Shown here: positions 3,301-40,381 of the stretch, piece by piece
How the letters are laid out: every line of letters starts with the position of its first letter
How positions within the stretch are numbered: the stretch's first letter is position 1
Assembly (NCBI GenBank): GCA_900128585.1
Contig: LT642167.1
Span: forward strand, 1 to 47,020
Origin: Stramenopiles sp. TOSAG23-3
Lineage: Eukaryota
Reading direction: 5' to 3'
Length of the DNA stretch: 47,020 nt
Position numbers and translations under genes: made by a program
Notes under the pieces: generated by a model
What the model was told of the DNA's origin: nothing
What the model saw: only the letters and a program-made list of their open reading frames with translations
The model's database searches: none

Positions 3301-6300
3301 CAACAGAATCTCTGACTTGGATTTCACAATCATTTTGTAATGCTTTGAAATCAACTTTATTTTTCTCAGAGTCCTCCTTTCGCAACTCATTTAAGGCTGC
3401 AATTTTCTCTTCGAACAATTTCATTTGAGAATTTAATGCGGTTTGGAGAGACAATTCCGACGCCTCTTTTGCAGATTTCAGGGAATTTATTTGAGATTCA
3501 TACTCATTTTTCTGCCTTTGAACTTCTGCAGATATTTTTGATTCATTCATTTCCGACATGGTCGAGTACTTTTCTTCCGTGACTTTCATTAGCTCTTCTG
3601 ACTTAGCATTTAGAAGAGATAGTTCTTTCACTTTTCTGGACTGCTCATCAAGTTTTTCTTTCAGTAATTTAGTCGCCGCAAGATACTTCTTTTCAATACT
3701 AGCATGCTTTTTTTCAGCATGGCGTAGAGCTTTCTTCTTATCATCATGGTGTTTTTTGATTAAAAACGCAATCTCTTCTTGCTTTTCTGAAGATATTTGA
3801 ACAAGGGCATCGTTATTTTCTCGGGCTAGCTGTTGACTTGTGGCGCACATTTCGTTGATAGCTATCTCATGATCTTTTATGAGTTTACTCTTTTCTGCAT
3901 TTAACGTTGTACCGAAGAAAGTTTCGTTAGCTCTCTGCTTCCACACAAAAAATGCCTTGACCGTCTTTCGTTGCATATAGATTGAAGAGAGCTTTGACAT
4001 GCATTTGCAAAATTGAGAAATGCTCTTTGTTTGATTTTTCCATTGCTGGAAGTGCAATTTAATTCGTCTAGTCATAAATTTATTCAAAAAGTGCTCAAGT
4101 GCGCGCGCTTGAAAACCCGATCTAGAATTCTCATAGACGTTCAGTTTCTCACTCAAGTCTCTATTTTTTTCTTTTAATGCTGTCTTTCTCCAAGTGTAGA
4201 ATGCAATCTGGGAATATCGCTTCGATACCATTTTTAGTACAGACGATAAAACTGCCCTGTTTGATTTGCTTTTTGTGGCCATGGTTCGGTTGCTCGCGTC
4301 TTCCATCTCACATCTTATGTTCTGCAATGTCGTTGTGTGTGTAAATCTGAGCCATGCCCGAAACGATTTATTCGTTAAGCGGTAATTTTTCCGTGCAATT
4401 TGAAACTTCGAGCAACTCTCAGCTGTACTATTCTGCAGAGCTTCGTATGCCTCTTCACTCTTTTCTTTTTCAGATAACATTGTATCATGAAACGCTACTT
4501 TTTGTGTTTTTTGCTGCATTAAGTACTTGTTTTGAAGCTTTTCTTCTAAATCAGAGTATTTTTTCATAAATTCTTCACGAAGCTCACTCATTTTTTCTTC
4601 GCTTTCTTTCGCATGCACTTTACTTGCCATTTTTAGTTCTTCAGAATGCTTACTTTGCAACAGATTGATAGCCTGCAAGCGCTCGTTTTCTGCTTTTAAT
4701 GCCATGCTTTGTAGAGCACTTTTAAATTCATGCTCACTCTTTTGTATTAATGATTCTTTTTCCTCCTCGGCTTTGCTGAGCTTCTCAGATTTTATGCGTT
4801 GCGCCTCATTTAGATCCCTCTGATGAGCCTCTTTCAAAAGCGCAATTGCAGATTCATGATGATCGGTTTGTGAAGTCATTTTTGTTTCAAGAACACTCAG
4901 TTTTTCATCCCACTGAGCTTTCAAATCGCCTTTTTCTTTCTCACACTGAACCTTCAGCTCTGAAATGCTATTTGACTTTTGGGCTTCAAATCCCTTTTGT
5001 AGTTCGGCTTTTAAAGCCCTTATCTCTTCAACATGAGATGCCTTAATTGCCGCAATAGAGGTGTGCAAAACATCTTTTTGTTTGAATTCGAGTAGCTCAA
5101 GTTCTTTTGAAGAAGAGTTTTTGAGCGCTTTTAACTCATCTTCATAGTGGCGTTTAAGGCTAGACATTTCTAGCGCGGACCGTTCCTTAACATGCCTTAC
5201 AGTTTCTTCTTGCATGGTCAATTTCTGCTTTGTCAGATCCAGTTCTGATTTCCATGTTTGCTCCGTAGATAAAAGTTTAGACGTGGCGCTCTCAGTTATT
5301 TCCACAAGACGTTGTTCATGCTTGGCAACCATTTCATTTCGATCTGCAGCAAATTTCCCCCTCAAAAGCTCAATTTTCTCGTTAAAGGTTGCTTCCATCT
5401 CCTTCGCTTTCTGTAAAGAGTTCTCTTGGAGAGCATGGAGATCTTTGTTGTACTGGTCCTTTAAATTCGAACTATTTTCAAGCTTCCGATTTTCAAACTG
5501 TTGCTCAGTCTGTTTTAATTTATTATCATAGGTGTTTTTAAGGGCCTCGATCTCCTTTAACTTGTCTTTTTGTAGTTGATCTGTAGCGATTCGCTCTTGG
5601 GCAGACTGTTTTTTAAAATCAGCGAACTGCATTTGAACCCTCGCCAATTCTTCTTTCAGTTGAGTAACTACGTTTTCATTAGCTCTGTTTTGATCAGCGA
5701 GTTGTTTTTCATAGTTTTCACTCCATTTCTTTTCTTGTGCTGAAAGATTTTGTTCCCACTTAATCGATTCGTTTTCAATAATAGTTTTGGATACGTTTTC
5801 TATTTTTGCTGTTTCCATTAGTGCCGTCTCTTTCTGAATGTTTAAAATTGCGGTTGAATGCTCTTCCTTCAGCTTTAAGACAGTGTTTTCATGCGTTTGA
5901 GTAAGCTCTTGAAATTTTCTCGCGCTGGACTCTTGAGAAGATCGAGTTATTTGCTCTAGTTCCACCTGCTTTTTTGAAAGGGCAGTTTCAAGAACTTGTT
6001 TCTCTTTTTCTAATTCCTCACTGAATTCTTTCCGTATCTTCTGTATTTCACTAGCGTGTTTATCGTTAGTCTGTCTTAATGATTCGCGCAGCTCCTGTTT
6101 TGTCGCAATGGTGTCTTCCTTTCCTTTTGCGTTGGCATCTGATAATGCCTTTTTATGATTTTCATTGATTTCTTCAATTTGCTTTTGGAAAATTTGAGCG
6201 TTTTCTTGAAGGCTGCGTTGAAGTTCTTGCGCAAACTGGGATTCACACTCTTTTCGACTAGTTTCAATTCTATTTTCGGTGAGATGAGCGAGATTTATGT

Positions 6301-9300
6301 TTCTACTCTCCATGCTTTCTTTGAACTCTCTCAAACGCATTGCAGCCGCATCTTCGGCTTCCTGGATTGCCTTTGATAAATTTATTTTTGATTCATCCAG
6401 TGCTTCTTGAAGGCGTTTGTTTTCGCCTTGCGCAGCAAGCAACTGAGTTTGCATCTCTGACTTAAAGACTGTTTGCTCTTTTTCCAACGATTCCTTTGAA
6501 ACCCGCAACTCTTCCATTAACTTAATTTTTTCGTTGGAAGACTTCAGAACTAAATTTTCTGTAATAGATTCAATTTTTGTCATCATTTCGTCCTTTTCTT
6601 TCGCACTTTGTTGCGTTAAATTATTTAAACGATCTTTAAGCATTGTTTCTTGACTTTTCATTTCACTATTTGTTTGCAAAGACTCATTTAGCTGCTTATT
6701 AAGTGCTTCCATGCTATTCTTGAGTAAAGTAACTTCTTCTTCTAACGCAGACTCACTACATTTGATTTCAGATTGGGATGATTTGGCTTCTGCCAGCTCT
6801 TTCGATATCTTTTCAAAATCCTTTTTGTACCTTTCATTCGCCACCTTGTCGGATAACGATGATTTGGTGGCATCTACTAATCGGCCTTCTACAGTCTCCA
6901 ACCGCTTGGACAAGACAAGTTTTTCGCTCTTTAAAGTATCGAGTTTTTCATTGAAAGAGATCTTGGCTTTGTCTAAGTCTTCTACTGCTGCGGCATGGCC
7001 ACTATTTTTTATTTCGGTCAATTTCATTTGCAGCGCTTGGATACACGCCTCTTTTTCGGGCAGGAGTTTATCAAATCCAGCAATTTTTTCTCTAAGTTTT
7101 GCACAAATGGATTCTTTTTCCTGGGAATGCGTTTGCAGTTCTATCATGGTATCCATTGCCTTTCTCAACGATGCTTGGATTTTATCGCGCTTCTCTCTCA
7201 ATTCAGAAATTTTTGCGTCTCTTAATTTGATTTCATTCCCAAGTTGCGTTTCGTTTTGTTTGTCATTAACTTCCTTTATTACATTTTTCTCCTTCAGTTT
7301 CGAAATGATGGTATCCTGATCTGATATTTTCTTCGCGAACTTTGAATTGGAAGACTCCAGTTCAACTACAAGTTTCTTGTACTTTCGAATTTCTTCGTTA
7401 AAAGCCTGAATCTGCAAATTTACCCTGTTTTGGGTCTTTTTTGAAGTGCTTTCTTCGAGCCTTAACTTTCGTTTTACTATTGACATCTGATTACTATTTT
7501 CTTCAAGATCTTGTTGAAGCTTCTCCATTTGCTCCTTGTGGTTCTTGTTTACAGAAGAGATTGACGAACGGGCTTTTTTCAGGGCTAGTTTGAGTTCAGA
7601 TATTTGCTTTTCAGCCATGTCCTTTTCGACAGAAATATTTTTCATGTACTTTTCTTCCAGCTGTTGGCGCTCTCTACGATTCGACTCCTTCAATTTGCGT
7701 TCGTTAGACAGTTCATTTTTCAGCTGCTTAACTTCAGTTGAAAGTTCATTAACCAATGACTGCGCTTTCGATTTTTCCAGTGCTTTTTGTTCCGTAAGAA
7801 TTTTCTCTCGCATTAATTTCTCTTTGACATCGTCCATTTCTCGCAACGCATTGGCGTACTCATTTTTGATAACTCCGACACGTTCCTCATTTGCACGGGC
7901 GTCCTGAACTTCACTCTCTAATTGCAAAATTTGAGATTTCATTGCCTTCTTTTGATGTTGCCATTCATCCACCACTTGGCGAATTCTATCAGACTCATCT
8001 CCCAATCGCTTTGCTGCCGCATCTCGCTGCGATCGCATACGTTTTGAATCAGCCTGGGAAGCCTGCAAAGCTATTCGTAAGTTTTGGGCCTCATCCTCCC
8101 TTCCTTCGACTGTCTTCTTCAATTGGGATATTTCTTGTCGCTGCAACATCACAGTTTCCTGATATTCTTCGACGTTTGCCTGCAACTCTTCAAAGTGCCC
8201 CAGCTCTTTAGTGTGTTCTTCACGGTTGGATATGACCTGATTCAATTTTCGCTGCAGTTCTTGCTTTTCAAGCTCGTTCTGTCTTGCCATTTCCCTCACT
8301 CGCTGCTTTAACTCTGTGCTTTCTTTGGTGCTTCTCACATGAAGCGATCGAATGCGGTTAAATTCTGTCGTGCGTTCTAGCAAGCGAACCTTCAGCTCGT
8401 CTACTTGAGAAGCAACCTTTTGCATTTCAGATGCACCAGTACTATCAACGTTGATTTTGGTCGAATTTTCAATTTTTTTGGCTCGACTAGAGTACATCAA
8501 GGAAGTCTTTGTTTGTTGAAAGAAAGCTTCCGGGCAACGGATGGTTGTGATCATGCAGGTTTTCGAATTGCCCCCCAACGAATCTCGCAACAGGTACGTT
8601 AATTTGTTGTGACGATAGGGAACAATGGGTTTTTTCGTACTGCCTCCTCTCTTTGAATGATACGAAGACAAAGCAGAAAGGACGTTCCCGAGCATTGCCA
8701 AAGATAAGTTAATGTTCTGGGTTTCGCGCAGGGTTGTGCCTTCTGCCCCCGACATGCTCACGCGCTCACTTCCTGCTAAGTCAACCAAATGCAACTTTCC
8801 CATGCACACGGCTCCCGCCCCCTTTTCACGGCTTTCCACGTCTAATGTCATTATCGAATGAGACCTTGAACTATGCTCGTTCAAATTTGTATGACCGACC
8901 GCTCGAGAACTCAAACCATAACGAATTAAACTCATAACTTCAGACACACTGCTAACTTTGCTGCGGAGAGTTTTCGATCCCGTCAAATACACTCCCTTGG
9001 ACGAATTTTCACGAACGTCGATCTTCGCACGGACCCTGTCCTCTTCGCGCAATTTGTTCTTTGAACGCGCTCCAAATTTTTTCGTTACATTGGACCCTTC
9101 CAACAAGTCACGAAAATTGTTGTTGTAAAGCTCTACAAAGCTCATACGAACCATGAACATCATGCCCGACTTTTTTGAGCTGTTTTCGCCAATCAGTTCA
9201 AAGAGTCGCTGGACGGCGCGCGGTGTAATACCAGGCCTCTCGTCTGTCCCCATCATGGTATGCGTCTTCCCGCTGCCAGTCGCCCCGTATGCAAAAATAG

Positions 9301-9619
9301 TAGCGTTGTAACCACCGACAACCGAGTCAACCAACTCTTCAATGCTTTCGTCAAACACATCTTGCTGTCGAGCGTCGGGACCGTAGACGCGGTCGTATCC
9401 AAAGTCTTTTCTTTCGCTTTCAAAATTGTGCGCATCCTTCAGGTTCTCCAAACCGGTATCGATCGTAGTCCTAAATGCTGGCTTGTACAGCGACAGCGCA
9501 GAAGAGTGCATCAGTTTAACACATGGTTTCCCAAAGCGTTTGAGGTCATTTTTGTGCTCCGGGCGGAGACGGACTATGACGCGGATCCTCTCGTTTTTAG
9601 CTTTCGCCGAGACACTCAT
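308..9619 (-). CDS. Giant N-terminal-motor kinesin (~3100 aa) with long coiled-coil stalk and C-terminal ankyrin repeats
   Basis: P-loop GATGSGKT, switch I NEHSSRSH, switch II LVDLAGSER, VPYR..KLTYLLRDSLGGNSKT. About 2200 aa of E/K-rich heptads follow. The tail has ankyrin motifs (GNTVLMHA, GESALHI, GLTPL, GRNPLH, GNTALL). First ATG is at 9619; the track start at 9625 is TTG. Confidence 0.95.
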   Translation of the reverse strand: MSVSAKAKNERIRVIVRLRPEHKNDLKRFGKPCVKLMHSSALSLYKPAFRTTIDTGLENLKDAHNFESERKDFGYDRVYGPDARQQDVFDESIEELVDSVVGGYNATIFAYGATGSGKTHTMMGTDERPGITPRAVQRLFELIGENSSKKSGMMFMVRMSFVELYNNNFRDLLEGSNVTKKFGARSKNKLREEDRVRAKIDVRENSSKGVYLTGSKTLRSKVSSVSEVMSLIRYGLSSRAVGHTNLNEHSSRSHSIMTLDVESREKGAGAVCMGKLHLVDLAGSERVSMSGAEGTTLRETQNINLSLAMLGNVLSALSSYHSKRGGSTKKPIVPYRHNKLTYLLRDSLGGNSKTCMITTIRCPEAFFQQTKTSLMYSSRAKKIENSTKINVDSTGASEMQKVASQVDELKVRLLERTTEFNRIRSLHVRSTKESTELKQRVREMARQNELEKQELQRKLNQVISNREEHTKELGHFEELQANVEEYQETVMLQRQEISQLKKTVEGREDEAQNLRIALQASQADSKRMRSQRDAAAKRLGDESDRIRQVVDEWQHQKKAMKSQILQLESEVQDARANEERVGVIKNEYANALREMDDVKEKLMREKILTEQKALEKSKAQSLVNELSTEVKQLKNELSNERKLKESNRRERQQLEEKYMKNISVEKDMAEKQISELKLALKKARSSISSVNKNHKEQMEKLQQDLEENSNQMSIVKRKLRLEESTSKKTQNRVNLQIQAFNEEIRKYKKLVVELESSNSKFAKKISDQDTIISKLKEKNVIKEVNDKQNETQLGNEIKLRDAKISELREKRDKIQASLRKAMDTMIELQTHSQEKESICAKLREKIAGFDKLLPEKEACIQALQMKLTEIKNSGHAAAVEDLDKAKISFNEKLDTLKSEKLVLSKRLETVEGRLVDATKSSLSDKVANERYKKDFEKISKELAEAKSSQSEIKCSESALEEEVTLLKNSMEALNKQLNESLQTNSEMKSQETMLKDRLNNLTQQSAKEKDEMMTKIESITENLVLKSSNEKIKLMEELRVSKESLEKEQTVFKSEMQTQLLAAQGENKRLQEALDESKINLSKAIQEAEDAAAMRLREFKESMESRNINLAHLTENRIETSRKECESQFAQELQRSLQENAQIFQKQIEEINENHKKALSDANAKGKEDTIATKQELRESLRQTNDKHASEIQKIRKEFSEELEKEKQVLETALSKKQVELEQITRSSQESSARKFQELTQTHENTVLKLKEEHSTAILNIQKETALMETAKIENVSKTIIENESIKWEQNLSAQEKKWSENYEKQLADQNRANENVVTQLKEELARVQMQFADFKKQSAQERIATDQLQKDKLKEIEALKNTYDNKLKQTEQQFENRKLENSSNLKDQYNKDLHALQENSLQKAKEMEATFNEKIELLRGKFAADRNEMVAKHEQRLVEITESATSKLLSTEQTWKSELDLTKQKLTMQEETVRHVKERSALEMSSLKRHYEDELKALKNSSSKELELLEFKQKDVLHTSIAAIKASHVEEIRALKAELQKGFEAQKSNSISELKVQCEKEKGDLKAQWDEKLSVLETKMTSQTDHHESAIALLKEAHQRDLNEAQRIKSEKLSKAEEEKESLIQKSEHEFKSALQSMALKAENERLQAINLLQSKHSEELKMASKVHAKESEEKMSELREEFMKKYSDLEEKLQNKYLMQQKTQKVAFHDTMLSEKEKSEEAYEALQNSTAESCSKFQIARKNYRLTNKSFRAWLRFTHTTTLQNIRCEMEDASNRTMATKSKSNRAVLSSVLKMVSKRYSQIAFYTWRKTALKEKNRDLSEKLNVYENSRSGFQARALEHFLNKFMTRRIKLHFQQWKNQTKSISQFCKCMSKLSSIYMQRKTVKAFFVWKQRANETFFGTTLNAEKSKLIKDHEIAINEMCATSQQLARENNDALVQISSEKQEEIAFLIKKHHDDKKKALRHAEKKHASIEKKYLAATKLLKEKLDEQSRKVKELSLLNAKSEELMKVTEEKYSTMSEMNESKISAEVQRQKNEYESQINSLKSAKEASELSLQTALNSQMKLFEEKIAALNELRKEDSEKNKVDFKALQNDCEIQVRDSVESTKEEMQKAHGDNVEKLKEDYEFQIVNLRKYSDEVCEKYEKQLEEAQANLEQERDEFAKKICEMEKDFAEKNRRSVAESVAKKCEEVQEQFSQMISEQENDFKEKINKTIGLERAKYDTIVAQMKEEILSEKEREIDELKSTLTGERDMQESMKDDMAQSQMKFTEAESTISSLKAQLKKIKSKDSKERNKQLQELEVKFTSKISSLEAAKESTELALQTALKDQAKMFEERLKESSEKNRKNKTILRKALTDQVKAYEVKLATANQESSSSVEVLKKQIEEMKVEHQEELKKANNAVNDEVVKKFEEKFVEKDLAIKSTKEKHNKALKSIHDNYIDKIANIESSNTKYIRKMIMDHEELTKTAVKNAVSVRMESVLVSHDKEVKALKEKLVSAVEKYKELKENFEEQLKSQSIEHKRALEDLEFQVEAQTSGAKKALSDVEKHLEEATEVASRSQTDVRKKHYEPLLKVMAHQDHRCLSVKKNAFKKLKRFRAVSSLSIDQLAHTSKFDSLRPSSFAKLVSTPSADSTIPLEKKDRKSMKQENNSRTPQAWKGISLRSSKLHASPTSYENEEEEFIANIHSAAYDGELHELKKAVNSRPKIFSENERHAPNLVPIHRAITGLNYHGDLSRVQKCVSVLLDNGFNLNQVDENGNTVLMHALTSMPAKKSMSLLRNILSVPSVNVSHKNSDGESALHIEIRRMNAMSLPIIKMLVEHGADVNAESKDGLTPLTLCIVLSRRAMGSPSSATAGVWTGTNYWIPIVRYLISYKAAWIGKKSAIDHCGRNPLHLLLSMPPPCINLADDHVSVVSNCLSMTSKKININAQDRYGNTALLGFCKAIAGISQKGDGRAYYKWATQIIDSMLLRGADARIISRHGLSPLDMAGYWDLAPVAKNVRANGGTLYDLVWSQLALFTRRRDKENGIGARKENSAAAGIPHVKKINGLLKKADKLSVESHRYISPSQKRFHGEHKKNPVDVSNLNNYRSRNTKDRSLRY

Positions 9620-11141
9620 TTTCAACTACCTAAAGCCCGATGCCCAGCGTGAACAAATACCTGCGTGCGTTTTACCAGGTAATAGAAACGAAAAGAATTG
9701 GCCGTTTCTTGTGGAGACAAAAATTGGTAAGCTTTATAAAAATGTACGTTATGCAACACAACGCCGTTTACAAATTAAAATGCGCCGAATGAAAGAAAGT
9801 GCGAGAAAGAAATGCTTTTTTGTTCTTGTTTGTTTGTTGTATGCGAAATCTCCATCCCCCATTTTTTTAATATTTTTTTATTTTATTATAATTATTATTT
9901 TTTTTTATTTTTAAACTCCTCTCTCTGTTGTTGTTGTTTGTTGTTATAAAATATTATTTTATTATTCTATTATTTTTTTAATAATAATTTTAATTTGAAA
10001 ATCATAAATATAATAAAATATGCGAAATAGGCAATTACAATGAAAGTGAGGAAAAGAAAATATATATAGGGATATATAATTATATAAGTATAAATATGTA
10101 TATATATGATAAATTCAATTTTATTGTATGTTATACTTTTATAATATATTGTATATTGATATAAATAGGATAATTAATAACATTAATTCAGTAACGACAA
10201 ATCCATTTATTCGTCGTCTCTCGTCCTCGTAGTTATTATTATAATTAATATTAGAACTACGATCGAAGTATTATAATAACTCACGACGGTATTTTATAAA
10301 AGGAAAAGTTAGCGATTTCAGATTTCACCAACAATCATCCTTTTTTTTCCCATAATTTTCATCTTTGCTTTTTCGTTCGTTATTCAGTTGTTCATAGTTT
10401 AAAGTTTAAAGTATATGCTATTTTAACTTATTTTGTACGGTAGTTATTACTTGGTATATTATTATACCTATCAAAGTGTTCTAATTACTACGTAATTCAA
10501 TTCAATTTGATTTCTTTTTCCTTTTTTCCCCTCAACCTGCTGTCGTGATTTAAAGTTGGTTTCCTCTTTTGCTATTTCCATGTTATATTTTAGCGTGTTC
10601 CAATGAGGACTTGAAAGAAAATAACGACTTTTCTTAAAATTTCTAATTTCTTCGTAAAAAGAAGTACGAACGCGTTTACCGGTACTTGAACAATGATGTG
10701 TTCATACTATAATGCAATTTTATTTCCTAGTTATGAAATAATACAAAAGTATGAAAGATGACAAGAAAAAAAAGAACAGGAGGACACTCATCGCACAAAC
10801 AACCTATTACATTGTAATACTACAGAAGAAGAAGAAACAACGAACGACGAAATCAATAATAATCCACCACAACAAAGAAGAATAAAAAAAATAATAATAA
10901 TAATGGACATATAATAATAATAATCACATCTATTTAATAATATACTAATAACAAATATTTATATAATTCTTGTTCAAAAAGTCAACAATCTGTTCAAAGG
11001 CAAAGTTTTCAAGGGGATTTAATTATAGTTTATTTAAAATTTTTATGTATTCAAGTAATAATTTAAGCGGAAAGTTTTTGAGTTTGAATTTATGCAACTG
11101 AAAAAGCATTTCTTAACAAACGTTAGAATACACGCGTAATT

Positions 11142-12926: not shown

Positions 12927-15900
12927 CTAAATTTTCCAGCTCAAGTACACCCAGAAAAAGAACAGCCCCAAAGCGAGGGTAGGAAAGACGGCATACTGCA
13001 GGGCACCGGCAGGTAAGACATGGTGTTCAAACTCTTCAAAATTATTGAATGGTCGGTTAAATATTTTCTCTGTGCACTGGCGCAACCGGAGCACCGCCAG
13101 CCCAACGAGCGAAGGAATTTGTTCGTAACCCCCAAGCTCAACACTTCGACGAAAATGTTCCTCTGCTTTCGAATCATTTCTTGAGAAGCGTCCATGGACG
13201 GAAAGATCAGTTATCAAGTAGGCGAACCCCACGCGGAAGAGCCCCTCTTGACTATTTTTTGAAGCAGCATATTCAAAATATTCCATTGCTCTCTCTACGC
13301 CATCTTTTCCTGACAGTTCGTACGCTGAGCCAAGAAGCAGAATATCGTCCACGTTCCCCTCCATTGCCGCCTGACTCGCGCGGTAAAGCGCAAACAGCTC
13401 TCGTTTCCATTCCTCTGTAGTATTACTAGCATTTGAAATCAGTGAAGTTAAATTTTTTATGCCACCAACATTTAGCATATTCCGTTTCCCACGCTGGATC
13501 CACGCCACATTGCTTATTGCATCCACCATGCCCATCGTAGCCGCCTCTTCATACAAAAGTTCAGCATTTCTAAAATCACCTTCGTTCCACAGTTTTAGTG
13601 CTTCTTTGGTAACATTTTGGGCTACGCCTAGTTCTGCCAGAGGCCGCAAAAATTTTATGGCCATTGAGCTAGAGCGATTCAGCGGGTACGTAGAGTTCTT
13701 GATCAGTTTCGGTGTTTTTTGGACCATGGATAAAACAATGCGATCATCGTAAACATAGCCAGTCATGTTTACATTACCATCCTTGCCAGCCCAAGAGTCC
13801 ATTGCCAGTATTTTACTAGGCTTTGCGGTGTACCGGTTTTGTCCCATTTCCTCTTGTACTGCGAAAGTAATCCAACTGCGGCGGTGAAGGTAAGCTTCTC
13901 CAAGTTGAAACATGGCTCGATGGTGCCCTAAATGTGATGCGATTAGAAAGTGCAACACTGCCATCCTGTAATTCTGTTTTAGACCTTTGCCATCTTTATA
14001 CAATGAGCCTAAATTGAAATGACCGTCGGGACTTAGAGTCGCAGCAGGAGAAAATTCTTTCTCTGCTGCGATCTGAAAGTACCGGTGAGCATCTACTGGA
14101 TCCGCTGGGCGCCCATCTTGACCATTGTAGCGCATAACAGCATAATTGTACGCTCCTTCAGCATTTCCTACTTCTGCAGCTGCTCTAAAAGCCTCCGCAG
14201 CCCTTGGTCTGTCTTGTGGAAACCCATTAAGCCCATGATAGTACCGCCCAGCGATCCACATTTTCGCGTTTAAATCGCCCTGTTCAGCTCGATCTTTCTG
14301 AAAGACTGCTACATCACTATCGTCTCCGTCATGCTGTTTTAAGAGTTCCTTTGACGCTTTCGACAAGTATATTCGCTCAGCCGGTTTTGGATGCTTTTGT
14401 TTCTTTTCCGGACCGACAACCTCCAAAGCGGCATCATAGTATATCGCCGCAGAAATGTCTTCGTCCGGACTGAATGAAAACTGCTCTTGATGTTGTCGTT
14501 CAGCTAACGGGTTCCTCAGACCTTCATCCCTCTTCGCAGTGACAACGCTGCCGTCTGGCCCACCAACATTTTGCCTTTCCAGCATGGGCCATGAATTACC
14601 CCTCAAAAAATTGTAAGCAAGCGTATGGCGCGACTTTTCGAACGACAATTTCTCGTAATTATAATTCTTCCGGTTCATTTTTGGCAAGTGCATGAAGTGC
14701 AACATCCATACCATGTGAGCCATCTTGCTGTCCCGAATACCGCTCCCAATTCGTTTCAACGCCAACGATTCATTACTTGTTGTCCAGTGGATGAGGCCTC
14801 CTCCGCCACTTCTCGATTTCTTCACTACGTTAGCGTTGGACTCGCTCACACCGGCCTGGGCCCCATTAGCCTCAATTGTAACTTCTGCACTAATGGCATT
14901 GAAGACGGCAGGAGCCTTGGCGATGTCGTCCGATCCACAACGGCCCCAAACGTCTATCAACGATACGGCTGTAAATGGTCCTTTGCGATCGATCCTCAAT
15001 TTGATTTTTTGCAATTTGGAGGGATGGGACATGGGCCACCCTTCCAACGTATCAATGCGGCCCTGAAGTGCCGAAGACGCTACACTGGAAATTTCTTCGA
15101 AATAATCGCCTGTCAGGCTTGAAGCAAAGATCGTAAAACCATCTGGGGCAAGTTTCCAATGCAAGCGTATAAAGTTAACTCCACTTTCGCATGGCGTCTT
15201 TGGAGAAATGGTAATTTCAGGATAGTTATCGTTGACACCACTTTTCCATAAAGTGTCCGGGTTCCCATCAACCGCGAATCTGCCTCTGTTGGTAGGGTTC
15301 CAGAACGACGATTCTTCCACTTCCGCACCGTGGAAGAAATTTTTATCCCCATGACTTTGACTTGATTCTACAGCTGCCGCCGGTTGTGATATTTCAGTCG
15401 CTCGGTTTGCACTCTTAATTGGCAACGGCAGCGGACCCGGTCCTTCTGCATTTAGAATATCTTGCACGTCAGGAAAACTCGGGGGGCATAGAAGTGGGAC
15501 GCACACCTTGACATGATACACGCACGTGCGCGTTTCTACCACTTGCTTTATTAGGGGTGCACCTACCGAAAATTCACTGCAGCACACGAAGCTTACATCC
15601 GCCATTCTGGGAGCATTCGAAGGCGAGCAATCATCCCCATTTCTGTAACGATGTGCTATGACGGACGACTGGAACTTTAGCCCCTTTACTGTGGAGGCGC
15701 ATTTTCTTCCCATGCCTGCTTGGGCGCGGCTGTCATAGAGACAACCTACCATGGCTTTGGCACTTTCAAACGAAATATGTGGGCAAAATATTTGCCTCTC
15801 TGGATTGCACTTTTTGTGTAGAAGGGACGGGTCCACCAAAAACACTGGTTCCCCAGCACTTTCAAACACGCCTATGGTATTGTTGACCAAAACTTCATTG

Positions 15901-17270
15901 GGATTCTGAGGAGCGTGACTTTGTGACACTCCGCTTTTGTGGCACAATTGGTAATCCCACCAGCCCAGCCGTGTCATGATACATGGGCGACTTTTGAACG
16001 CCTCATCTAGCAATTCTCTCTCTGACAATTTGTTCCAACTTTTTAGCGCATCTTCCATTCGCGTCCTTGACTTCTGCACGGCAAGAATACCCATGCCTAG
16101 TGCGCGTTGTCTCCAATCGCCACCTGCCATTTTTTCGGACGGCGGGGCAGCTACAAGAGCCTGGCCGAACTTGAACATTGACGCCGAGGCAGACTCGTCC
16201 TCCTCGGGAGGGGGAGCCCCTTGCGTAGTTGAGAGGGCCTTTTCGTCGCTTAATTTATTTAACGGATCGTCCCCTAAGCTCGCCTGTACCACTTTTACGA
16301 GCCATTTTGGGATCGGCGCCGGGGCACTTCGAGCAATGTTTAATTTTATCTGTTGGTGAAGCAACGCGACCCCATCCCAAGCTCTGGCGTGACTGATCAA
16401 GCCGGTGATACCTTTCGCACTCTCTACCTTCCCGAATGTCAGTACCCGGCGTGCCGGATCGATCGCTCCCTGCCCGCCGGCTTGACCCTGCAGATTAAAT
16501 TCTGTTGTGTTTAGCTCTCCTACTGCATGGTTATCAATAAGGAGGGATAGGATCTCCCCAGTGTACACCAAGGCTACGTGGTGCCATTTGCGCGGTCGCA
16601 TTACGTTCGACATAGTGACGCCTTTTATGTCTAAATTCACCTTGGCCCCCGCCATCGTTCCCTTTCGTTCGGTGGTACAGAGGCCCAAAAACAAACTAAT
16701 CTTACCAGGATCGCTAGGAAGTGCATACAAAATTGGCGACAACGACTCACGCTGCAAAGGTATCGCTTGAAGGAGAGAGAGATGTGGACTGCCCATCTGC
16801 GGACCGTCCCATAACCAAACAAAAAAAACAATCGTCCCTGGAATACCAAAATTCAAAGGCGACTGGGCTTGTATACGAAAATCCCTATTGGAGGGAACGG
16901 TCTGGGAAAGCAAAGGATACCCTTCGGTGGTTTGGTCAGAATATACAATTCGCGTACCGTTTTTAAATTTGCGCAGGGTTGCATCGTCAACTCGTAGGAT
17001 ATGCATGGCCTTTTCTGGGAATTTTTGTAGAACAATTTTCCAAGCCGGTACAGGTCGTTTCACTCCTGACGTCTGAATGTACCAGACGTTGTGCCTGTCA
17101 TCCTCTACCAGTTCTCCTGGCTGCGGGTGTTTGTTGTAAACATTTTTAAAGTACCCCAGACGCCCGAGGTGGGAAGCCCGACTCGGAAAAATAAAAAAAG
17201 AAAGGAACACCAAAAGCTCCAAAACATAGTTTGCGGCACTACGTTTGGGGCGCTGTCGCCGATTCATCAT
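12927..17270 (-). CDS. ER type-I membrane protein: signal peptide + LamG/ConA-like + OS-9-type MRH + F5/8C-like + SEL1L/Hrd3 repeats + C-terminal TM
   Basis: Hydrophobic N-terminus. WHHVALVY...GLISHARAWD (LamG). GWWDYQLC...Q...NGDDC...R...E..CVY (MRH). FAVDGNPDTLWKS (discoidin-like). SEL1 repeats with Hrd3-like ERIYL...DGDD, GHFNLGSLYKDGKG, AMFQLG, ISNVAWI. Terminal TM segment. Confidence 0.85.
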   Translation of the reverse strand: MMNRRQRPKRSAANYVLELLVFLSFFIFPSRASHLGRLGYFKNVYNKHPQPGELVEDDRHNVWYIQTSGVKRPVPAWKIVLQKFPEKAMHILRVDDATLRKFKNGTRIVYSDQTTEGYPLLSQTVPSNRDFRIQAQSPLNFGIPGTIVFFVWLWDGPQMGSPHLSLLQAIPLQRESLSPILYALPSDPGKISLFLGLCTTERKGTMAGAKVNLDIKGVTMSNVMRPRKWHHVALVYTGEILSLLIDNHAVGELNTTEFNLQGQAGGQGAIDPARRVLTFGKVESAKGITGLISHARAWDGVALLHQQIKLNIARSAPAPIPKWLVKVVQASLGDDPLNKLSDEKALSTTQGAPPPEEDESASASMFKFGQALVAAPPSEKMAGGDWRQRALGMGILAVQKSRTRMEDALKSWNKLSERELLDEAFKSRPCIMTRLGWWDYQLCHKSGVSQSHAPQNPNEVLVNNTIGVFESAGEPVFLVDPSLLHKKCNPERQIFCPHISFESAKAMVGCLYDSRAQAGMGRKCASTVKGLKFQSSVIAHRYRNGDDCSPSNAPRMADVSFVCCSEFSVGAPLIKQVVETRTCVYHVKVCVPLLCPPSFPDVQDILNAEGPGPLPLPIKSANRATEISQPAAAVESSQSHGDKNFFHGAEVEESSFWNPTNRGRFAVDGNPDTLWKSGVNDNYPEITISPKTPCESGVNFIRLHWKLAPDGFTIFASSLTGDYFEEISSVASSALQGRIDTLEGWPMSHPSKLQKIKLRIDRKGPFTAVSLIDVWGRCGSDDIAKAPAVFNAISAEVTIEANGAQAGVSESNANVVKKSRSGGGGLIHWTTSNESLALKRIGSGIRDSKMAHMVWMLHFMHLPKMNRKNYNYEKLSFEKSRHTLAYNFLRGNSWPMLERQNVGGPDGSVVTAKRDEGLRNPLAERQHQEQFSFSPDEDISAAIYYDAALEVVGPEKKQKHPKPAERIYLSKASKELLKQHDGDDSDVAVFQKDRAEQGDLNAKMWIAGRYYHGLNGFPQDRPRAAEAFRAAAEVGNAEGAYNYAVMRYNGQDGRPADPVDAHRYFQIAAEKEFSPAATLSPDGHFNLGSLYKDGKGLKQNYRMAVLHFLIASHLGHHRAMFQLGEAYLHRRSWITFAVQEEMGQNRYTAKPSKILAMDSWAGKDGNVNMTGYVYDDRIVLSMVQKTPKLIKNSTYPLNRSSSMAIKFLRPLAELGVAQNVTKEALKLWNEGDFRNAELLYEEAATMGMVDAISNVAWIQRGKRNMLNVGGIKNLTSLISNASNTTEEWKRELFALYRASQAAMEGNVDDILLLGSAYELSGKDGVERAMEYFEYAASKNSQEGLFRVGFAYLITDLSVHGRFSRNDSKAEEHFRRSVELGGYEQIPSLVGLAVLRLRQCTEKIFNRPFNNFEEFEHHVLPAGALQYAVFPTLALGLFFFWVYLSWKI

Positions 17271-17841: not shown

Positions 17842-18329
17842 TAATAATACTATTTTATTAAAAAAAAAAAAGGAATCTCCTTCCTCCTCCCCCCTTTATT
17901 ATTTTATTATAAATTTCTCTTCTTCTTCTTTTCCCTTATTCTCTCCCTTATTATCGAATTTCCGGGTGGTGTACAGTACGTACAGTAGCTGGTATTCTTC
18001 CAATCAGAACGTTTTGTTTTTTAAATTAAAAAATCAACCTGCTACTCGTGTACCGTTGAAAAATAGAATAAATATAATATATATAATACACACAGTAGTA
18101 TACGAAGTGTCATATTTTTTATAATTATTTGAACAAAAGATAGTAATGTTTCATTGGTGAGTATTAACAAAAAACATTAACATGAGCAAAGAAGTGAAAA
18201 CAAAAGCACAAATTTAGAACTAAGGGTATCTTCATTGACACGATAAAGAAGAAACGGTAAAAATTGTAGTTCGTTCGTGTTACTCTTGTGTTACTGAATT
18301 TCCATTACTTTGGTGTGACCATTTGGAAC

Positions 18330-21300
18330 ATGCTGATCTTCGTCCTGGCCTTGTTGATGCTTTCAGGCGGATGGTCTTCACCGCATGCAAACTTAGAAAT
18401 TCCCCCATTGCCAAAATTCGGCAAGGCGCTAGATGCGGCAAGCGCGAGTATTGATAATGCATGTTTCGTTGGGGCTTATAGAGTAGAAGTGGACCAGGCG
18501 AAGGGCGCTGAACAATGTAGTGGGTGGAAACAGTGCGAGTTGGGTTTCTACTGCTTGAACGGGGGAAAACACCCGTGCCCAGCGGGTCGATATGGATCAA
18601 CAACTGGCTTGAAGTCACCGGATTGCTCAGGACCCTGCCCACCAGGCCACTATTGCCCCCCTCAAACGACAAATGGGGAAGACTACTTGTGTGGAAACTC
18701 AGCGCATTACTGCCCTAGTGGCTCTGAGAGCCCAGCGAAAGTTCGAAGCGGGTTCTATTCCACTGGCAATGGCAATGATAGATTCAATTCGACGAGAACA
18801 GGGGAGTCACTGTGTGAGGCAGGTTCATACTGCGTTGGTGGAATAAAACAGCCCTGTCCAGCAGGGCGTTACGGCCTTCACACTGGCATGGGGTTGAACA
18901 GTTTTGATTACGTTCTTCAGGGGGATCGGAGCAACAGATGTGTGGCGGAAGGCAGCAGCATCATCACAACCGTGGAAGAATGCAGGAACGCGGCAGCGTT
19001 TTTGAAGATCAATTTTTTTTCTGACCCAGGAGGGTTCTCCAACAAATCAGTACCAAGTGGGTGCGTATACCGGGCCGGTTCTAACCAGTACAACCATAAG
19101 GTCTTGTTCAACACGCACCCTAACACTCACCTAAACATGGTAGAAGAGCATAACCCAAAGGCAACGGGGTGGGAGACCGTGTGCTCCCAGCGGATGCCAT
19201 GCTCTGGCATTTGCCACGCGGGATACTATTGCCCCGCAGGCAGCACGTCTCCCCGTCAGTACCAGTGCAACGGAATGACTAATGACGGCGCAGAGAAAGG
19301 GTTGAGGCAACCCGTCCAGTTTTGCCCTGAAGGATCGGGGATACCGCAAATACTGCAGGAGGGCGGGCACGCGCAGGAGGCGCAACCAAATGCACACTTT
19401 GCGTTACCACCGTCTGGTACAGTTACAAAATTGTCAATTAGAACTGGGGAAGAATTGTGCCTCGCAGGCCATTATTGCCTAGAGGGGTTGTCGTACAAGT
19501 GCCCTGCGGGAAGGTACGGGGTGCGGCGCGGAGAAACGAACCCTTTGTGCACTGGTCCATGCTTGGAAGGGTACTACTGCCCGGAAGGCAGCATAAGCGC
19601 AAAGGAGCGCAAGTGCATGGGCACAAACGAGTTTTGCCCACCTGCGTCCCGATCTCCGGCTGCTGTACGAAACGGATTTTTTACCATTAGTTCGTACAGC
19701 GACGAATTCATTGCACTTCAGCATGGAAAACTTGACAGCGATGTCCCGTCTACAATGACTCACGAGGCGCAGTGCGGCTCTGGGCGATATTGTATCGATG
19801 GAGTCGCGTTCAAATGTCCTGCGGGGCGGTACGGAAGTGAGGCAGGCCTCACCTCTAGCGAATGCACCGGCGCTTGCGAAGCGGGTTATTTTTGCCCCAT
19901 TGGGAGTGTGACAAAACGGCATTCAAACTGTTCATCGCCTGCAGTGTTTTGCCCAGAAGGGAGCGTTGAGCCGCTTCCCGTACACGAAGGTTACTACACC
20001 ATTGGAGGCGACGAGCAGCATCGATGGGACGAAGTACGGTGTGAACTAGGACACTGGTGTACTGGTGGTACGCGGAAGCCCTGCCCCTCCGGTCGCTACG
20101 GCGCTTCCGTGGGCTTGCACAGCGAAACTTGTACCGGAATCTGTGCGCCTGGATATTATTGCCCGCCTGCATCGTTCGAAGCCACTCAAAAACAATGCGG
20201 CGGCCCGCACCTTTACTGCCCGGAAGGCTCATCCACTCCCATCCCCGTTCTTTCAGGGTACCACACGGTAAGGGGCGGTCCGCCAGCCCTTTATACGGTA
20301 GAGCTAAGCGTTGACGACAGGGTGCCGTTTTCTTCATGCCGGAATGCCAGTAATTATTCAAGGTGCATAAACAGGTGGGACCCAGTTCGAAAGTTTAGAA
20401 TTGTAGAAGACCCAGACCCTAGCATGAACATTCGCTCCACTCAAATCCCCTGCTCCCCTGGCTACTTCTGCATCGCGGGCGTACGATTCATTTGCCCATC
20501 TGGGCGGTACGGGAGTCTGTATAATGAGACCCGGTCGGCATGCGAAGGCGTTGCTCGGGCCGGGCATTTCACGTCCCCCGGCAGTACCAGTGTGGGCACA
20601 ATCAACCGTATCCCTCCAGTGTATTCTGCCCTTCTGGAGACAATGATGTTACGTTCGTGGACAAGAAATCCCCCGCCAACACAGGATCATGGAAGTACGT
20701 GGAGGTCGATTTGCCCAACGGCCGTGTGAACCAGGGCATTACTGCGACAAGGGAATAAAAATACGTTGTCCCGCAGGGCGGTACGGAAAAACGTGGAAGC
20801 TAGACTCTATCGATTGCACGGGAGAGTGCGACGCAGGGTACTATTGCCCCCCAGGATCGAACAGCAGCACACAAAAGGAATGTGGAGACATCGAAGGGGC
20901 GAGGTCCCCGTGCTACGTTACCCCCACTGGGTTGGTAGAAAGTACTCGCCGGTCGGGCGAGCGCAGATGTGAGTATCCACACGCCGACGAGAACAAGCGC
21001 TGGCCTAAAATGATGGAAGACTACGGAAACGGGTGGAAAACTGTTCACCACTACGAGAACGAATGGCTTCAGGAAGGCCAACCGAGGCATTTTCATTTTC
21101 ATATTAGCCAACAGCACCGCTCTCGCACAAAATCAAGCGGGCTGCCCGCATCCGTATATTGCCCGAAAGGGTCATCGCTTCCCACGAACGTTCGCCCGGG
21201 GTACTACACGATCGGAGGAAACAATGCGACGAACAGAACAAGGGTCGAGGAGGTACCATGCAAGACGGGACACTTTTGTGAGCAAGGTATGATTTTTCAA

Positions 21301-21525
21301 TGCCCGCCCGGACGTTACGGTAGTGTCAAGGGTCTGACGGAAGAGCACTGCTCTGGATTTTGCCCACCTGGGCACAGGTGTGGATGGAACACTACAACTC
21401 CCGAGGAGTGCGCCCAAGGGTATTACTCGAGTGGTGGGTGGGCATACTGTATGAAGTGCCCAAGAAACCCGCGCACTGAGTCCGTTCAAACTTGCAAAAC
21501 CGGGCGTAAGTGCTGCAGCATGTGA
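18330..21525 (+). CDS. Secreted cysteine-rich repeat protein (GCC2/GCC3, ephrin-receptor-like repeats) with two apparent -1 frameshifts near 20585 and 20650-20710
   Basis: Signal peptide MLIFVLALLMLSGGWS from the ATG at 18330. Recurring CPAGRYG..C.G.C.AGYYCP.GS...CG...FCP.GS units continue across track ORFs 18288-20729, 20540-20758 and 20689-21525. Confidence 0.8.
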
Positions 21526-24456: not shown

Positions 24457-25527
24457 ATGTCGCTTGCGTTTTCTTTTGCTAGTGGAATGGCAGTCGGGTT
24501 GGCAATTCGCCGGAGCTACTCCGTACGAACTAGTCCGTCGTATCTATTCTTCTTTTCCACGAGGGGGCGAAGTGGATGGGGCACAAAGAAAACCCGTGCA
24601 GATTTAGAAAGTAGAATTTCTGAGTTTTGCAAAGAGGAAGAATCTAAGAATCCAGAGGACGAGACACAGGTTCTGGTGAAAAGTTTGGCTGGTAATGTAG
24701 CCGAGCGTGACGCTGACGCGTTCGATGTTCTTGGCGAGTTTCGTAGATTCTTAAAGACGGAGTACCTCGGTCGCACAGGATTTTACGCTCCTGTGTTGCC
24801 TTCGTCACAGACGCTGCTGTACGAGTCTTTCGACGGCGTGCTTCAGGAAGGGCTCATTTGCATCGTTGACAGGCAGAGCAAGGGCAAAGGGCGGGGTGGA
24901 AACTCTTGGGTCTCCCCGCAGGGGTGCGCGATGTGCTCGTTCAAGTTCCAAGAAACGAGCGGAAGGAAGGTCCCGTTCCTCCAGTACTTGATAGCTCTGG
25001 CCGTCCATAGGGCGATAAAGTCGCTTCCGGGCGGGGAGCACATTGACGTGGGGATCAAGTGGCCCAACGACATATACGTTGACAAAAAAATAAAGATTGG
25101 GGGTGTCCTCTCGCAGAGCAAATTTTCGGACAACAAGTTTGATGTGACCATTGGCATGGGCATTAACACTACGAACGAGGAACCGACCGTCAGCTTGAAT
25201 TCGAAGTTGCCCAAAGGCTTTCCAAGAATTTCGCGCGAACAACTGTTGGCGGAAGTGTTGAATCAATTCGAATCGATGATGCCCACATTCCGAAAGGAAG
25301 GCTTTAAACCATTCCACGAGGATTACAAGCGGGCATGGCTGCACACGGACCAGAACGTCCAGGTTTGCCTCAAAGATGGGAAGGACCCGATCATGGTGCA
25401 AATCAAGGGGATATGTGAAGCTTCCGCGGGTTTGTATGCCATCGACAAGAACAACAAACCGTATGAGCTGTATCCGGATGGCAACTCGTTTGATTTTTTT
25501 AAAGGCTTGATTCGGCGAAAGCTATAG
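24457..25527 (+). CDS. Biotin--protein ligase (holocarboxylase synthetase)
   Basis: QSKGKGRGGNSWVSP, IKWPNDIY, KIGGVL, GMGIN, and the eukaryotic-type C-terminus PDGNSFDFFKGLI. Confidence 0.95.
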   Translation: MSLAFSFASGMAVGLAIRRSYSVRTSPSYLFFFSTRGRSGWGTKKTRADLESRISEFCKEEESKNPEDETQVLVKSLAGNVAERDADAFDVLGEFRRFLKTEYLGRTGFYAPVLPSSQTLLYESFDGVLQEGLICIVDRQSKGKGRGGNSWVSPQGCAMCSFKFQETSGRKVPFLQYLIALAVHRAIKSLPGGEHIDVGIKWPNDIYVDKKIKIGGVLSQSKFSDNKFDVTIGMGINTTNEEPTVSLNSKLPKGFPRISREQLLAEVLNQFESMMPTFRKEGFKPFHEDYKRAWLHTDQNVQVCLKDGKDPIMVQIKGICEASAGLYAIDKNNKPYELYPDGNSFDFFKGLIRRKL

Positions 25528-39035: not shown

Positions 39036-40381
39036 ATGTTCATAAATTTTAGCATGTTGAAGTATTCCTTTTCAAGCACAAAAGTGTAGTAGTCTTGTTG
39101 TAATTTCGATAGTATAATTAAAATAATTTGTTGTATCAAACTTGTATATCATCTTATTATTTCATAGTAAAGTTGTAGTAAATAATATTTAATTTCTGTA
39201 TTTATGGCAATAGGAAACTAAAGTCAGGTAAAATCAGCATTTGTTCCGAGGAAGAATTCGGTGGTGTGTCAGTTTATTTATTTTTACAGATGTGGGCACA
39301 CTTTTTAACAGCCCCTACTACAGCACCATATAAACTGTGGGTGGGTGGGTTTTGCATTTTGCACCACTCGTTTGCTTAAAATAATTAATATATTTGAACT
39401 TCTTCGAGAGGGAGGAAGGAGGTGTTGAACTAAATTATTTTAGTATAAAAATATTGTATATTAAATTATTCTTCCTATCTGTATTGCTTTATAATTCTGG
39501 ATCCCTAAATGATATTATGATAGGGATTAATGTATACTACAATACAAAATAATTATGTAAGTACGTATTGTATTAGTCCGAGATTTTTAGCAACTGCGGC
39601 GGCCTGACTTAATACTTACTTACTTACTCACTATTTGCTTAGTGGCCACTTAGCTATAAGATAGAACTGACTAATAAAACTATTATTTAATTTTTAATTT
39701 AATTTAATTCCAGTTCGTAGTTTAAAATGGCTTATTATTATATAGAACGACTATAGAATAGACGATTATTATATAAATACAGTTGTTATTTTATTCTTTA
39801 AATCTCTCTCTAATAAAAGGAAGTTAGATAAATATCTATTTAGTATAATAAAATAACATGGAAGTAGAATGTGATAGATAATCCTCAAAGTTACTAATTA
39901 ATCCAAATTTTTAGATAAACTACATTTTTTAAAGGATCGAAAGGAAGAAAGTGATAATGTAATATAAGCACAGTGAGGGACGAAGGGAGGAATAATAAAA
40001 AAAATAATTTATTAATATTAGCTAGACTGACTAGCTTCTTATAAAAAAACTTTTTATTAAAAGAAAAGGAAATTAATCTAACCAACCGTATGATCAGTAA
40101 AGAAAGGAAGAAAGAAAGAAGAATGATGTTTACAACTATCCGGTATTGAAGATTACATTTATACTTATTCAAATCATACACGAATCGGTAACTGAATCGC
40201 GTAGTGTATATATATCTGCCCCCCCCCCCCTTCTTCTCGTTTGTACCAAGCAAGCGTTGAACGGACGCGCGTGTTCGAGTGGATAAACATTGGTCGCCTG
40301 GTCACACTGCAAGAACTAACGATTGCTAGCAACAGAGCATCGTCAAAGCATATTCAGCTCCAGTCGTCTTCGTCCTTAGAC

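Follow-up and report, generated by a model that had tools for sequence, protein, structure and literature searches.

The fused gene and its relatives

In this study, we examine a gene from Stramenopiles sp. TOSAG23-3 whose product unites, in a single chain, a lectin of the OS-9/XTP3-B/Yos9 type and an adaptor of the SEL1L type, both known from ERAD, the degradation pathway associated with the endoplasmic reticulum (ER). The stretch analysed, here called the window, comprises positions 1 to 47,020 of contig LT642167.1 (assembly GCA_900128585.1; 47,020 nucleotides (nt) in all). Positions 12,927–17,270 of its minus strand, on which all parts of the gene are read, hold an intron-free coding sequence for 1447 amino acids (aa) plus a stop codon, matched by RNA contigs without joints and by the full-length homologues P0002, P0003 and P0004. 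From N- to C-terminus, the protein comprises a signal peptide, a ConA/LamG-like region, an MRH domain, an F5/8 type C (F5/8C, CBM32-like) domain, Sel1 repeats and a C-terminal transmembrane helix. A preliminary description of this DNA, made from its letters alone, had claimed an uninterrupted 1447-aa open reading frame (ORF) with such a domain series; the frame runs for 4341 nt without any stop, internal stops numbering zero, and the domain coordinates given there agree with the positions from Pfam and hydropathy.

The signal peptide covers residues 1–33 (17,172–17,270) with a hydrophobic segment at 11–30, and would be cleaved after SRA; an N-terminal hydrophobic segment is also present in P0003 and P0004. 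At the other end, hydropathy places the transmembrane helix at residues 1423–1445 (12,936–13,004), and such a helix is likewise found in P0003, P0004 and P0008. Only two residues follow it, leaving a minimal cytosolic tail. By hydropathy, this type I layout of an N-terminal signal and a single C-terminal transmembrane helix recurs throughout P0001 to P0004.

A word-indexed search recovered three full-length relatives, each with a precomputed pair of PF07915 (PRKCSH) and PF08238 (Sel1) matches: P0002 (98% identity, 1472 aa), P0003 (63%, 1462 aa) and P0004 (42%, 1409 aa). All three share the architecture and can be aligned end to end with the window protein. Identity is high in the domains (64–88% to P0003, 41–68% to P0004) and low in the linkers (28–29% and 14–37%, respectively), as expected of a single multi-domain protein that is under selection. 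Furthermore, an exhaustive HMMER search with residues 34–990 gave 145 matches, mostly ordinary MRH proteins. Two sequences of 29–31% identity, P0026 and P0027, combine the ConA-like, MRH and F5/8C parts with the beginning of the repeat region, and a search with P0027 led to P0169 (1651 aa) and P0170 (1634 aa), which both carry PF07915 and PF08238. These two are collinear with the window protein, with identities of 40% across 361 Sel1-part residues and 22% across the 764 residues that precede them; the fusion is thus present in at least two divergent subfamilies. A search of other sequences for the MRH plus Sel1 architecture, proposed in the preliminary description, therefore yields P0002, P0003, P0004, P0169 and P0170, referred to below as the five full-length relatives. 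In their source annotations, these relatives are called no more than ‘TPR repeat protein’ or ‘hypothetical protein’.

The genomic surroundings are shared in part. A metagenome scan for the locus recovered a single locus, the contig of P0003 (L001), on which a relative of the divergently oriented Cys-rich repeat gene stands at the same upstream position (E 4e-33); the 3′ neighbour of the window gene is not syntenic with L001. DNA of the gene is found in marine metagenomes and metatranscriptomes, and pieces of it occur in 4/4 RNA libraries, in contigs at least 99% identical to it and without splice joints. RNA across the MRH–SEL1 junction had been named earlier as a check on the fusion: contig X18 record 19 bridges the MRH domain to the F5/8C domain, X15 record 4 the F5/8C domain to the pre-repeat region, and X15 record 3 the pre-repeat region to the repeats, whereas positions 15,081–15,164 are not bridged. 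This and other stretches are left uncovered, holes that prove nothing, and contigs of this kind cannot prove transcription or one single transcript. X18 record 15 contains two extra T behind 13,714, within the coding sequence, which are absent from the other runs covering the site and are probably a contig error.

Could the fusion be an artefact, produced by a chimeric assembly or by reading two genes as one? The window does differ from its relatives at 14,043–14,047, where it is without 75 nt (25 aa, exactly one helix pair of a Sel1 repeat, LNGIGV...KRSA in P0002) that are present in all five full-length relatives, a sign of an assembly imperfect at one site. The sole RNA contig crossing this site, X15 record 3, has about 75 extra letters there, and the gap stems from either allelic variation or a mistake in the assembly. 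The protein need not be inactivated by a loss of this size, since human SEL1L isoform X3, without 23 residues (one C-helix plus one N-helix), still works; SEL1L residues 396–418 make up the C-helix of Sel1-like repeat (SLR) 4 and the N-helix of SLR5 (PMC12217079, in excerpt). An artefact is contradicted by the independent contigs from other sources that encode the same full-length architecture, by the syntenic Cys-rich neighbour in L001, by the RNA contigs that tile the domain junctions (except 15,081–15,164) without joints, and by the stop-free frame itself, and we find it scarcely credible. The fusion is one genuine gene, conserved at 98, 63 and 42% identity, in a distant subfamily and beside one syntenic neighbour, as the preliminary description had proposed when it spoke of a natural fusion and named a chimera or a gene pair as the alternative.

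Some observations on the relatives and the surroundings stand apart from this argument. P0026, P0027, P0169 and P0170 carry about 150–190 extra N-terminal residues after the signal peptide, without a Pfam match, followed by a Ser/Thr-rich low-complexity stretch, and P0039 and P0085 seem to combine ConA-like and MRH parts and to contain very long insertions. The Cys-rich neighbour lies at 18,288–21,525 (plus strand), with its relative at 325–1467 (minus strand) of L001; its units resemble C.aG.YC..G....CPaGRYG, and the large protein has no Pfam match. It is split here into the overlapping ORFs 18,288–20,729 and 20,689–21,525 and so may carry a frameshift or an intron. Elsewhere in the window, the 3105-aa product of the ORF at 308–9625 (minus) carries a kinesin motor (E 1.3e-95) near its N-terminus and ankyrin repeats towards its C-terminus. 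Ordinary eukaryotic genes with long intron-free ORFs encode a ZNF598-like RING protein (31,426–33,882, minus), a P4-type phospholipid flippase (40,241–44,029, plus), a lipoate/biotin ligase family protein (24,457–25,527, plus) and a RING protein (44,908–46,692, plus). Rfam and tRNA scans of the 47-kb window gave no match.

Lectin-type domains

The MRH domain, residues 429–595 (15,486–15,986), is of the OS-9/XTP3-B/Yos9 type, as had been claimed, by sequence as well as by predicted fold. Its best PDB sequence matches are ERLEC1/XTP3-B (E 1.5e-17), OS-9 (1.9e-9) and Yos9 (4.7e-8), while domains of the mannose-6-phosphate (M6P)/IGF2 receptor match weakly (E 0.25–0.67 in the PDB sequence search, 1.8e-5 in another search). 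In the predicted model of residues 34–830, the MRH block reaches a predicted local distance difference test (pLDDT) score of mostly 75–92. The top Foldseek matches are OS-9 chains (9og0_E at E 2.5e-9; 3aih at TMt 0.84–0.85 and E 3e-8), and VIA against the OS-9 MRH domain gives Z 15.8 with a root-mean-square deviation (rmsd) of 2.8 and 110/111 residues aligned.

The motifs quoted in the preliminary description are all in the translation: GWWDY at 436–440, VSQSH at 448–452, GDDC at 545–548, PRMA at 554–557, VVET at 577–580 and CVY at 583–585. Within them, W437, W438, Q450, R555, E579 and Y585 are invariant in 5/5 full-length relatives and align to the corresponding positions of OS-9, XTP3-B and Yos9. 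The D of GDDC, which had been counted to the same residue set, is variable (A in P0169 and P0170). The residue that follows the Cys of this motif is S, as in XTP3-B MRH1, and D in OS-9, Yos9 and XTP3-B MRH2. The cysteines C430, C443, C548, C563/C564, C583 and C595, six canonical ones forming a predicted disulphide set, are also invariant in 5/5. In the human HRD1–SEL1L–XTP3B structure, Gln133, Arg207, Glu228 and Tyr234 of XTP3-B hold the mannose at the end of the trimmed C arm (PMC12217079, in excerpt), and the double tryptophan is reported to set alpha1,6-mannose specificity (PMC3332353, in excerpt, citing Satoh 2010). As the counterpart of these four XTP3-B residues, the Q/R/E/Y set is counted for a mannose-reading interpretation, and the mannose-binding residue set is, judged by alignment, intact. 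A helical insertion at residues ~470–535 (15,666–15,863; three helices in the model; 71%/47% identity to P0003/P0004) interrupts the domain; its 66 residues hold four cysteines (C488, C496, C510 and C524), and it is present only in the close group and not in P0169 and P0170.

Behind the MRH domain, residues 642–778 (14,937–15,347) form a beta sandwich that is F5/8 type C/CBM32-like by predicted fold and by profile. VIA against the CBM32 module 4zxe gives Z 17.5, rmsd 2.2 and 129 aligned residues for model residues 642–778, and a 15-sequence profile matches CBM32 4zz5 over its full length (4–136; E 2.3e-9). The domain thus resembles CBM32 and F5/8 type C (discoidin) modules both in fold and in sequence profile. 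Pfam F5_F8_type_C stays below its cut-off of 28.2 in the window protein (13.9 bits, E 0.059) and in P0026 (26.7 bits, E 6.8e-6). To our knowledge, such a domain is no part of ERAD lectins or of SEL1L. It might be a spacer or, speculatively, a second sugar-binding site.

The ConA/LamG-like beta domain at residues ~121–320 (16,311–16,910) is likely, and is the weakest of the domain calls. Laminin_G_3 matches residues 200–308 at E 0.0026, its 18.3 bits falling short of the cut-off (27.6) that only the homologue P0039 exceeds (31.2 bits), and the LG domain of PAPP-A matches the region at E 0.083. The region is all-beta in the predicted model, with a block pLDDT mostly of 65–84; no ConA-like fold is among the 50 Foldseek/VIA matches listed for the three-domain model, lists filled by the other two domains and hence uninformative. 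Support for the earlier assignment is weak and comes from sub-threshold Pfam matches, the PAPP-A match and an all-beta model. One may speculate that the region binds glycan or polypeptide. Ahead of it lies a small conserved subdomain, residues 34–120 (16,911–17,171; 67%/49% identity to P0003/P0004), with strands and two helices in the predicted model and no match in a Pfam scan of the protein.

Three carbohydrate-binding-type folds in series, together with a very short cytosolic tail, could also be read as a multi-lectin receptor of the secretory pathway or the cell surface, without a role in ERAD, whose Sel1 repeats would be generic protein-binding modules. The C-terminus, judged from the translation, is without a visible ER retrieval motif, which would fit such a receptor, and, as far as we know, SEL1L and Hrd3 are without ER retrieval motifs too. 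The MRH domain speaks against this reading, as its residues are the set of ER quality-control lectins and its best matches are ERLEC1, OS-9 and Yos9, not the M6P receptors. We regard such a receptor as quite improbable, also in view of the repeats.

The Sel1 region

Before the canonical repeats, a conserved helical region spans residues 826–985 (14,316–14,795), with 66%/48% identity to P0003/P0004 and helices in a low-confidence model; fragments of further relatives (P0028, P0029 and P0036) also span it. The central cluster of Sel1 repeats follows at residues 986–1145 (13,836–14,315). It is the most conserved part of the protein (88%/68% identity to P0003/P0004), scores 52.8 bits with PF08238 (cut-off 30.7) and aligns to SEL1L 362–527. 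An insertion within the repeats, residues 1146–1195 (13,686–13,835; 54%/24% identity), contains four predicted beta strands, placed at 1154–1196 (335–377 of the model) with a block pLDDT of 66–73. Next, a non-canonical segment of SEL1L type at residues ~1196–1285 (13,416–13,685) is collinear with SEL1L 528–600. The region ends with C-terminal Sel1 repeats and a last long helix, residues 1286–1405 (13,056–13,415), where canonical repeat matches and an IPS motif are found; P1386 is invariant in 5/5 full-length relatives, and I1385 and S1387 are invariant only within the close group. Compared manually, this part is a possible counterpart of SLR11/12 and the HRD1-binding amphipathic helix of SEL1L (PMC12217079, in excerpt). 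The low-confidence model of residues 820–1447 shows about 13 helix pairs and the long last helix.

Are these repeats of SEL1L type? With a five-sequence profile (A5), no PDB chain surpasses SEL1L in a single stretch, which scores 74 bits (profile positions 961–1122 to SEL1L 362–527); the best bacterial one reaches 56 bits. Right after the SEL1L stretch, a further one, which falls on the non-canonical SEL1L segment 528–600, scores 21.9 bits with an independent E value (i-E) of 2.1e-4. This stretch, being significant by itself, counts against the multi-lectin receptor with generic repeats. A profile restricted to the C-terminal 256 positions (A4) matched 19 chains at E up to 10, and the best stretch lies on the non-canonical segment only in the four SEL1L sequences, with 3rjv as a weak exception (positions 39–76, E 1); bacterial chains match the canonical repeats instead. 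Bacterial Sel1-repeat proteins (such as 6ok3, 4bwr and LpnE) share high-scoring canonical repeats with the window protein, but in the profile comparison their stretches are confined to the same canonical repeats, with none on the SEL1L-specific segment. Moreover, they have no MRH domain and are soluble chains without a transmembrane helix. By language-model comparison, the closest clusters consist of eukaryotic Sel1 proteins, among them ‘protein sel-1 homolog 1’ at 0.95, which is a lead only. A word-indexed search with the Sel1 part against shorter proteins returned fragments of the same family and SPOR-domain proteins, and no named SEL1L.

The collinear SEL1L-specific segment and the C-terminal transmembrane helix support common descent with SEL1L/Hrd3, and the profile comparison, which is not a phylogeny, supports a Sel1 part that is SEL1L-like and not generic. 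In this respect, the SEL1L/Hrd3-like nature of the repeats asserted at the outset agrees with both the 74-bit stretch and its collinear continuation. Like SEL1L in animals, Hrd3 in yeast and HRD3A/EBS5 in plants, the adaptors of HRD1, the window protein has a signal peptide, a Sel1 solenoid that would be luminal and a single C-terminal transmembrane helix. It differs from SEL1L by about 800 extra N-terminal residues with lectin-type domains, by the insertion of about 50 residues of predicted beta strands in its solenoid, and by a cytosolic tail of two residues. SEL1L itself carries a fibronectin II domain on its N-terminal side.

A candidate single-chain receptor for ER-associated degradation

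In yeast, animals and plants, OS-9/Yos9 and SEL1L/Hrd3 are separate partners that bind each other non-covalently. The gene product described here is, in our reading of the sequence, fairly probably a single-chain substrate receptor of HRD1-type ERAD, a type I ER membrane protein in which the luminal recognition parts of the HRD1 complex, an OS-9/XTP3-B/Yos9-type lectin and a SEL1L-type adaptor, are joined in one chain. In such a receptor, the MRH domain would read a trimmed N-glycan with exposed alpha1,6-mannose on a misfolded protein, the Sel1 solenoid would hold the unfolded polypeptide, and the last repeats and last helix would bind an HRD1-type ligase on its luminal side.

The covalent link itself would have consequences for the lectin. 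With OS-9, XTP3-B/ERLEC1 and Yos9, which are soluble ERAD lectins, the window protein shares the MRH fold, the double tryptophan, the Q/R/E/Y set and the conserved cysteines; unlike them, its lectin is covalently joined to the adaptor instead of docked through a separate beta domain, the close group adds the 66-residue four-cysteine helical insert, and a CBM32-like domain follows the MRH domain. XTP3-B is anchored to SEL1L mainly by the beta domain after its MRH domain, of 4-beta-1-alpha structure, with the MRH domains adding little (PMC12217079, in excerpt), and OS9 levels in plants drop in a sel1l mutant, whose authors suggest that OS9 is kept in the ER by SEL1L (PMC3332353, in excerpt). Given this anchor and this dependence, a covalent link would make an anchor unnecessary: it would replace the non-covalent one needed by OS-9, XTP3-B and Yos9, fix a 1:1 stoichiometry and retain the lectin in the ER. 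The F5/8C domain lies at the position that the SEL1L-binding beta domain occupies behind the MRH domain in XTP3-B or Yos9.

Several observations weigh against a single-chain ERAD receptor. The window's own PF07915 score, 26.5 bits at residues 430–548, is 0.5 bit short of the cut-off of 27, which is exceeded in P0003 (37.5), P0004 (41), P0169 (52.6) and P0170 (43.6 bits), and the deposited models of P0169 and P0170 are without the C-terminal transmembrane helix. The AlphaFold model of residues 820–1447 is poor (pLDDT 52.5, predicted template modelling score (pTM) 0.30), and Foldseek with this model mixes bacterial Sel1 proteins, SEL1L and Hrd3 at TM scores of about 0.2 without separating them. 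Searched as a single sequence against the PDB, the C-terminal third of the window protein matches neither SEL1L nor Hrd3, and the match of yeast Hrd3 is weak and not collinear (E 0.0015–0.4). At the glycan contacts K688 and D692 of SEL1L, a manual register places E1370 and R1374, so that these contact residues of SEL1L are not conserved. Whole-chain scores with profile A5 are equal or higher for bacterial proteins than for SEL1L (135 bits for 6ok3, 116 for SEL1L), a point in favour of the multi-lectin receptor; the bacterial scores are high because numerous canonical repeats pile up on the same few repeats of the profile. Finally, separate OS-9 and Hrd3 genes may exist alongside the fused one.

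This last possibility leads to another explanation, namely a paralogue particular to its lineage, which took over MRH and SEL1L-like modules and works beside an ordinary, separate pair of OS-9 and Hrd3, serving, for example, a special substrate class or a different lectin function in the ER such as retention, ER-phagy or sorting. The domains foreign to canonical OS-9 and SEL1L (ConA-like, CBM32-like, the four-cysteine MRH insert and the beta insertion of the solenoid) would suit such a paralogue, as would the weak match of yeast Hrd3. Separate genes are moreover reported in two algae, one green and one a diatom: OS9 and Hrd3A are tabulated as separate genes for Chlamydomonas (PMC7838096, in excerpt), and Phaeodactylum is discussed likewise (PMC9585838, in excerpt). 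Conversely, the collinear SEL1L-specific segment and the transmembrane helix favour common descent with SEL1L over generic repeats, and the repeat core is strongly conserved, at 88% where overall identity is 63%. A paralogue of this kind therefore seems to us unlikely, if less so than the multi-lectin receptor.

For the single-chain ERAD receptor, both the parts and their partnership are known, and what is new is the covalent arrangement with two added lectin-type folds. The preliminary description knew of no described example of an MRH–Sel1 fusion, and a full-text literature search likewise found none. As independent evolutionary evidence, a conserved natural fusion argues for lectin and adaptor acting as a 1:1 unit, and a single chain is a simpler subject in which to study substrate hand-over structurally and biochemically. 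In such lineages, ERAD inventories that look for OS9 and Hrd3 as separate genes could arrive at wrong counts. The CBM32-like and ConA-like additions also raise the question of whether further glycan features are read in protist ER quality control. A bolder and rather doubtful extension would be that, in a clade of marine protists, the fused chain has replaced the separate lectin and adaptor as the sole luminal receptor of HRD1, its three lectin-type folds reading more than trimmed mannose. If this were true, these protists would use a glycan code for ER degradation other than that of yeast, animals and plants.

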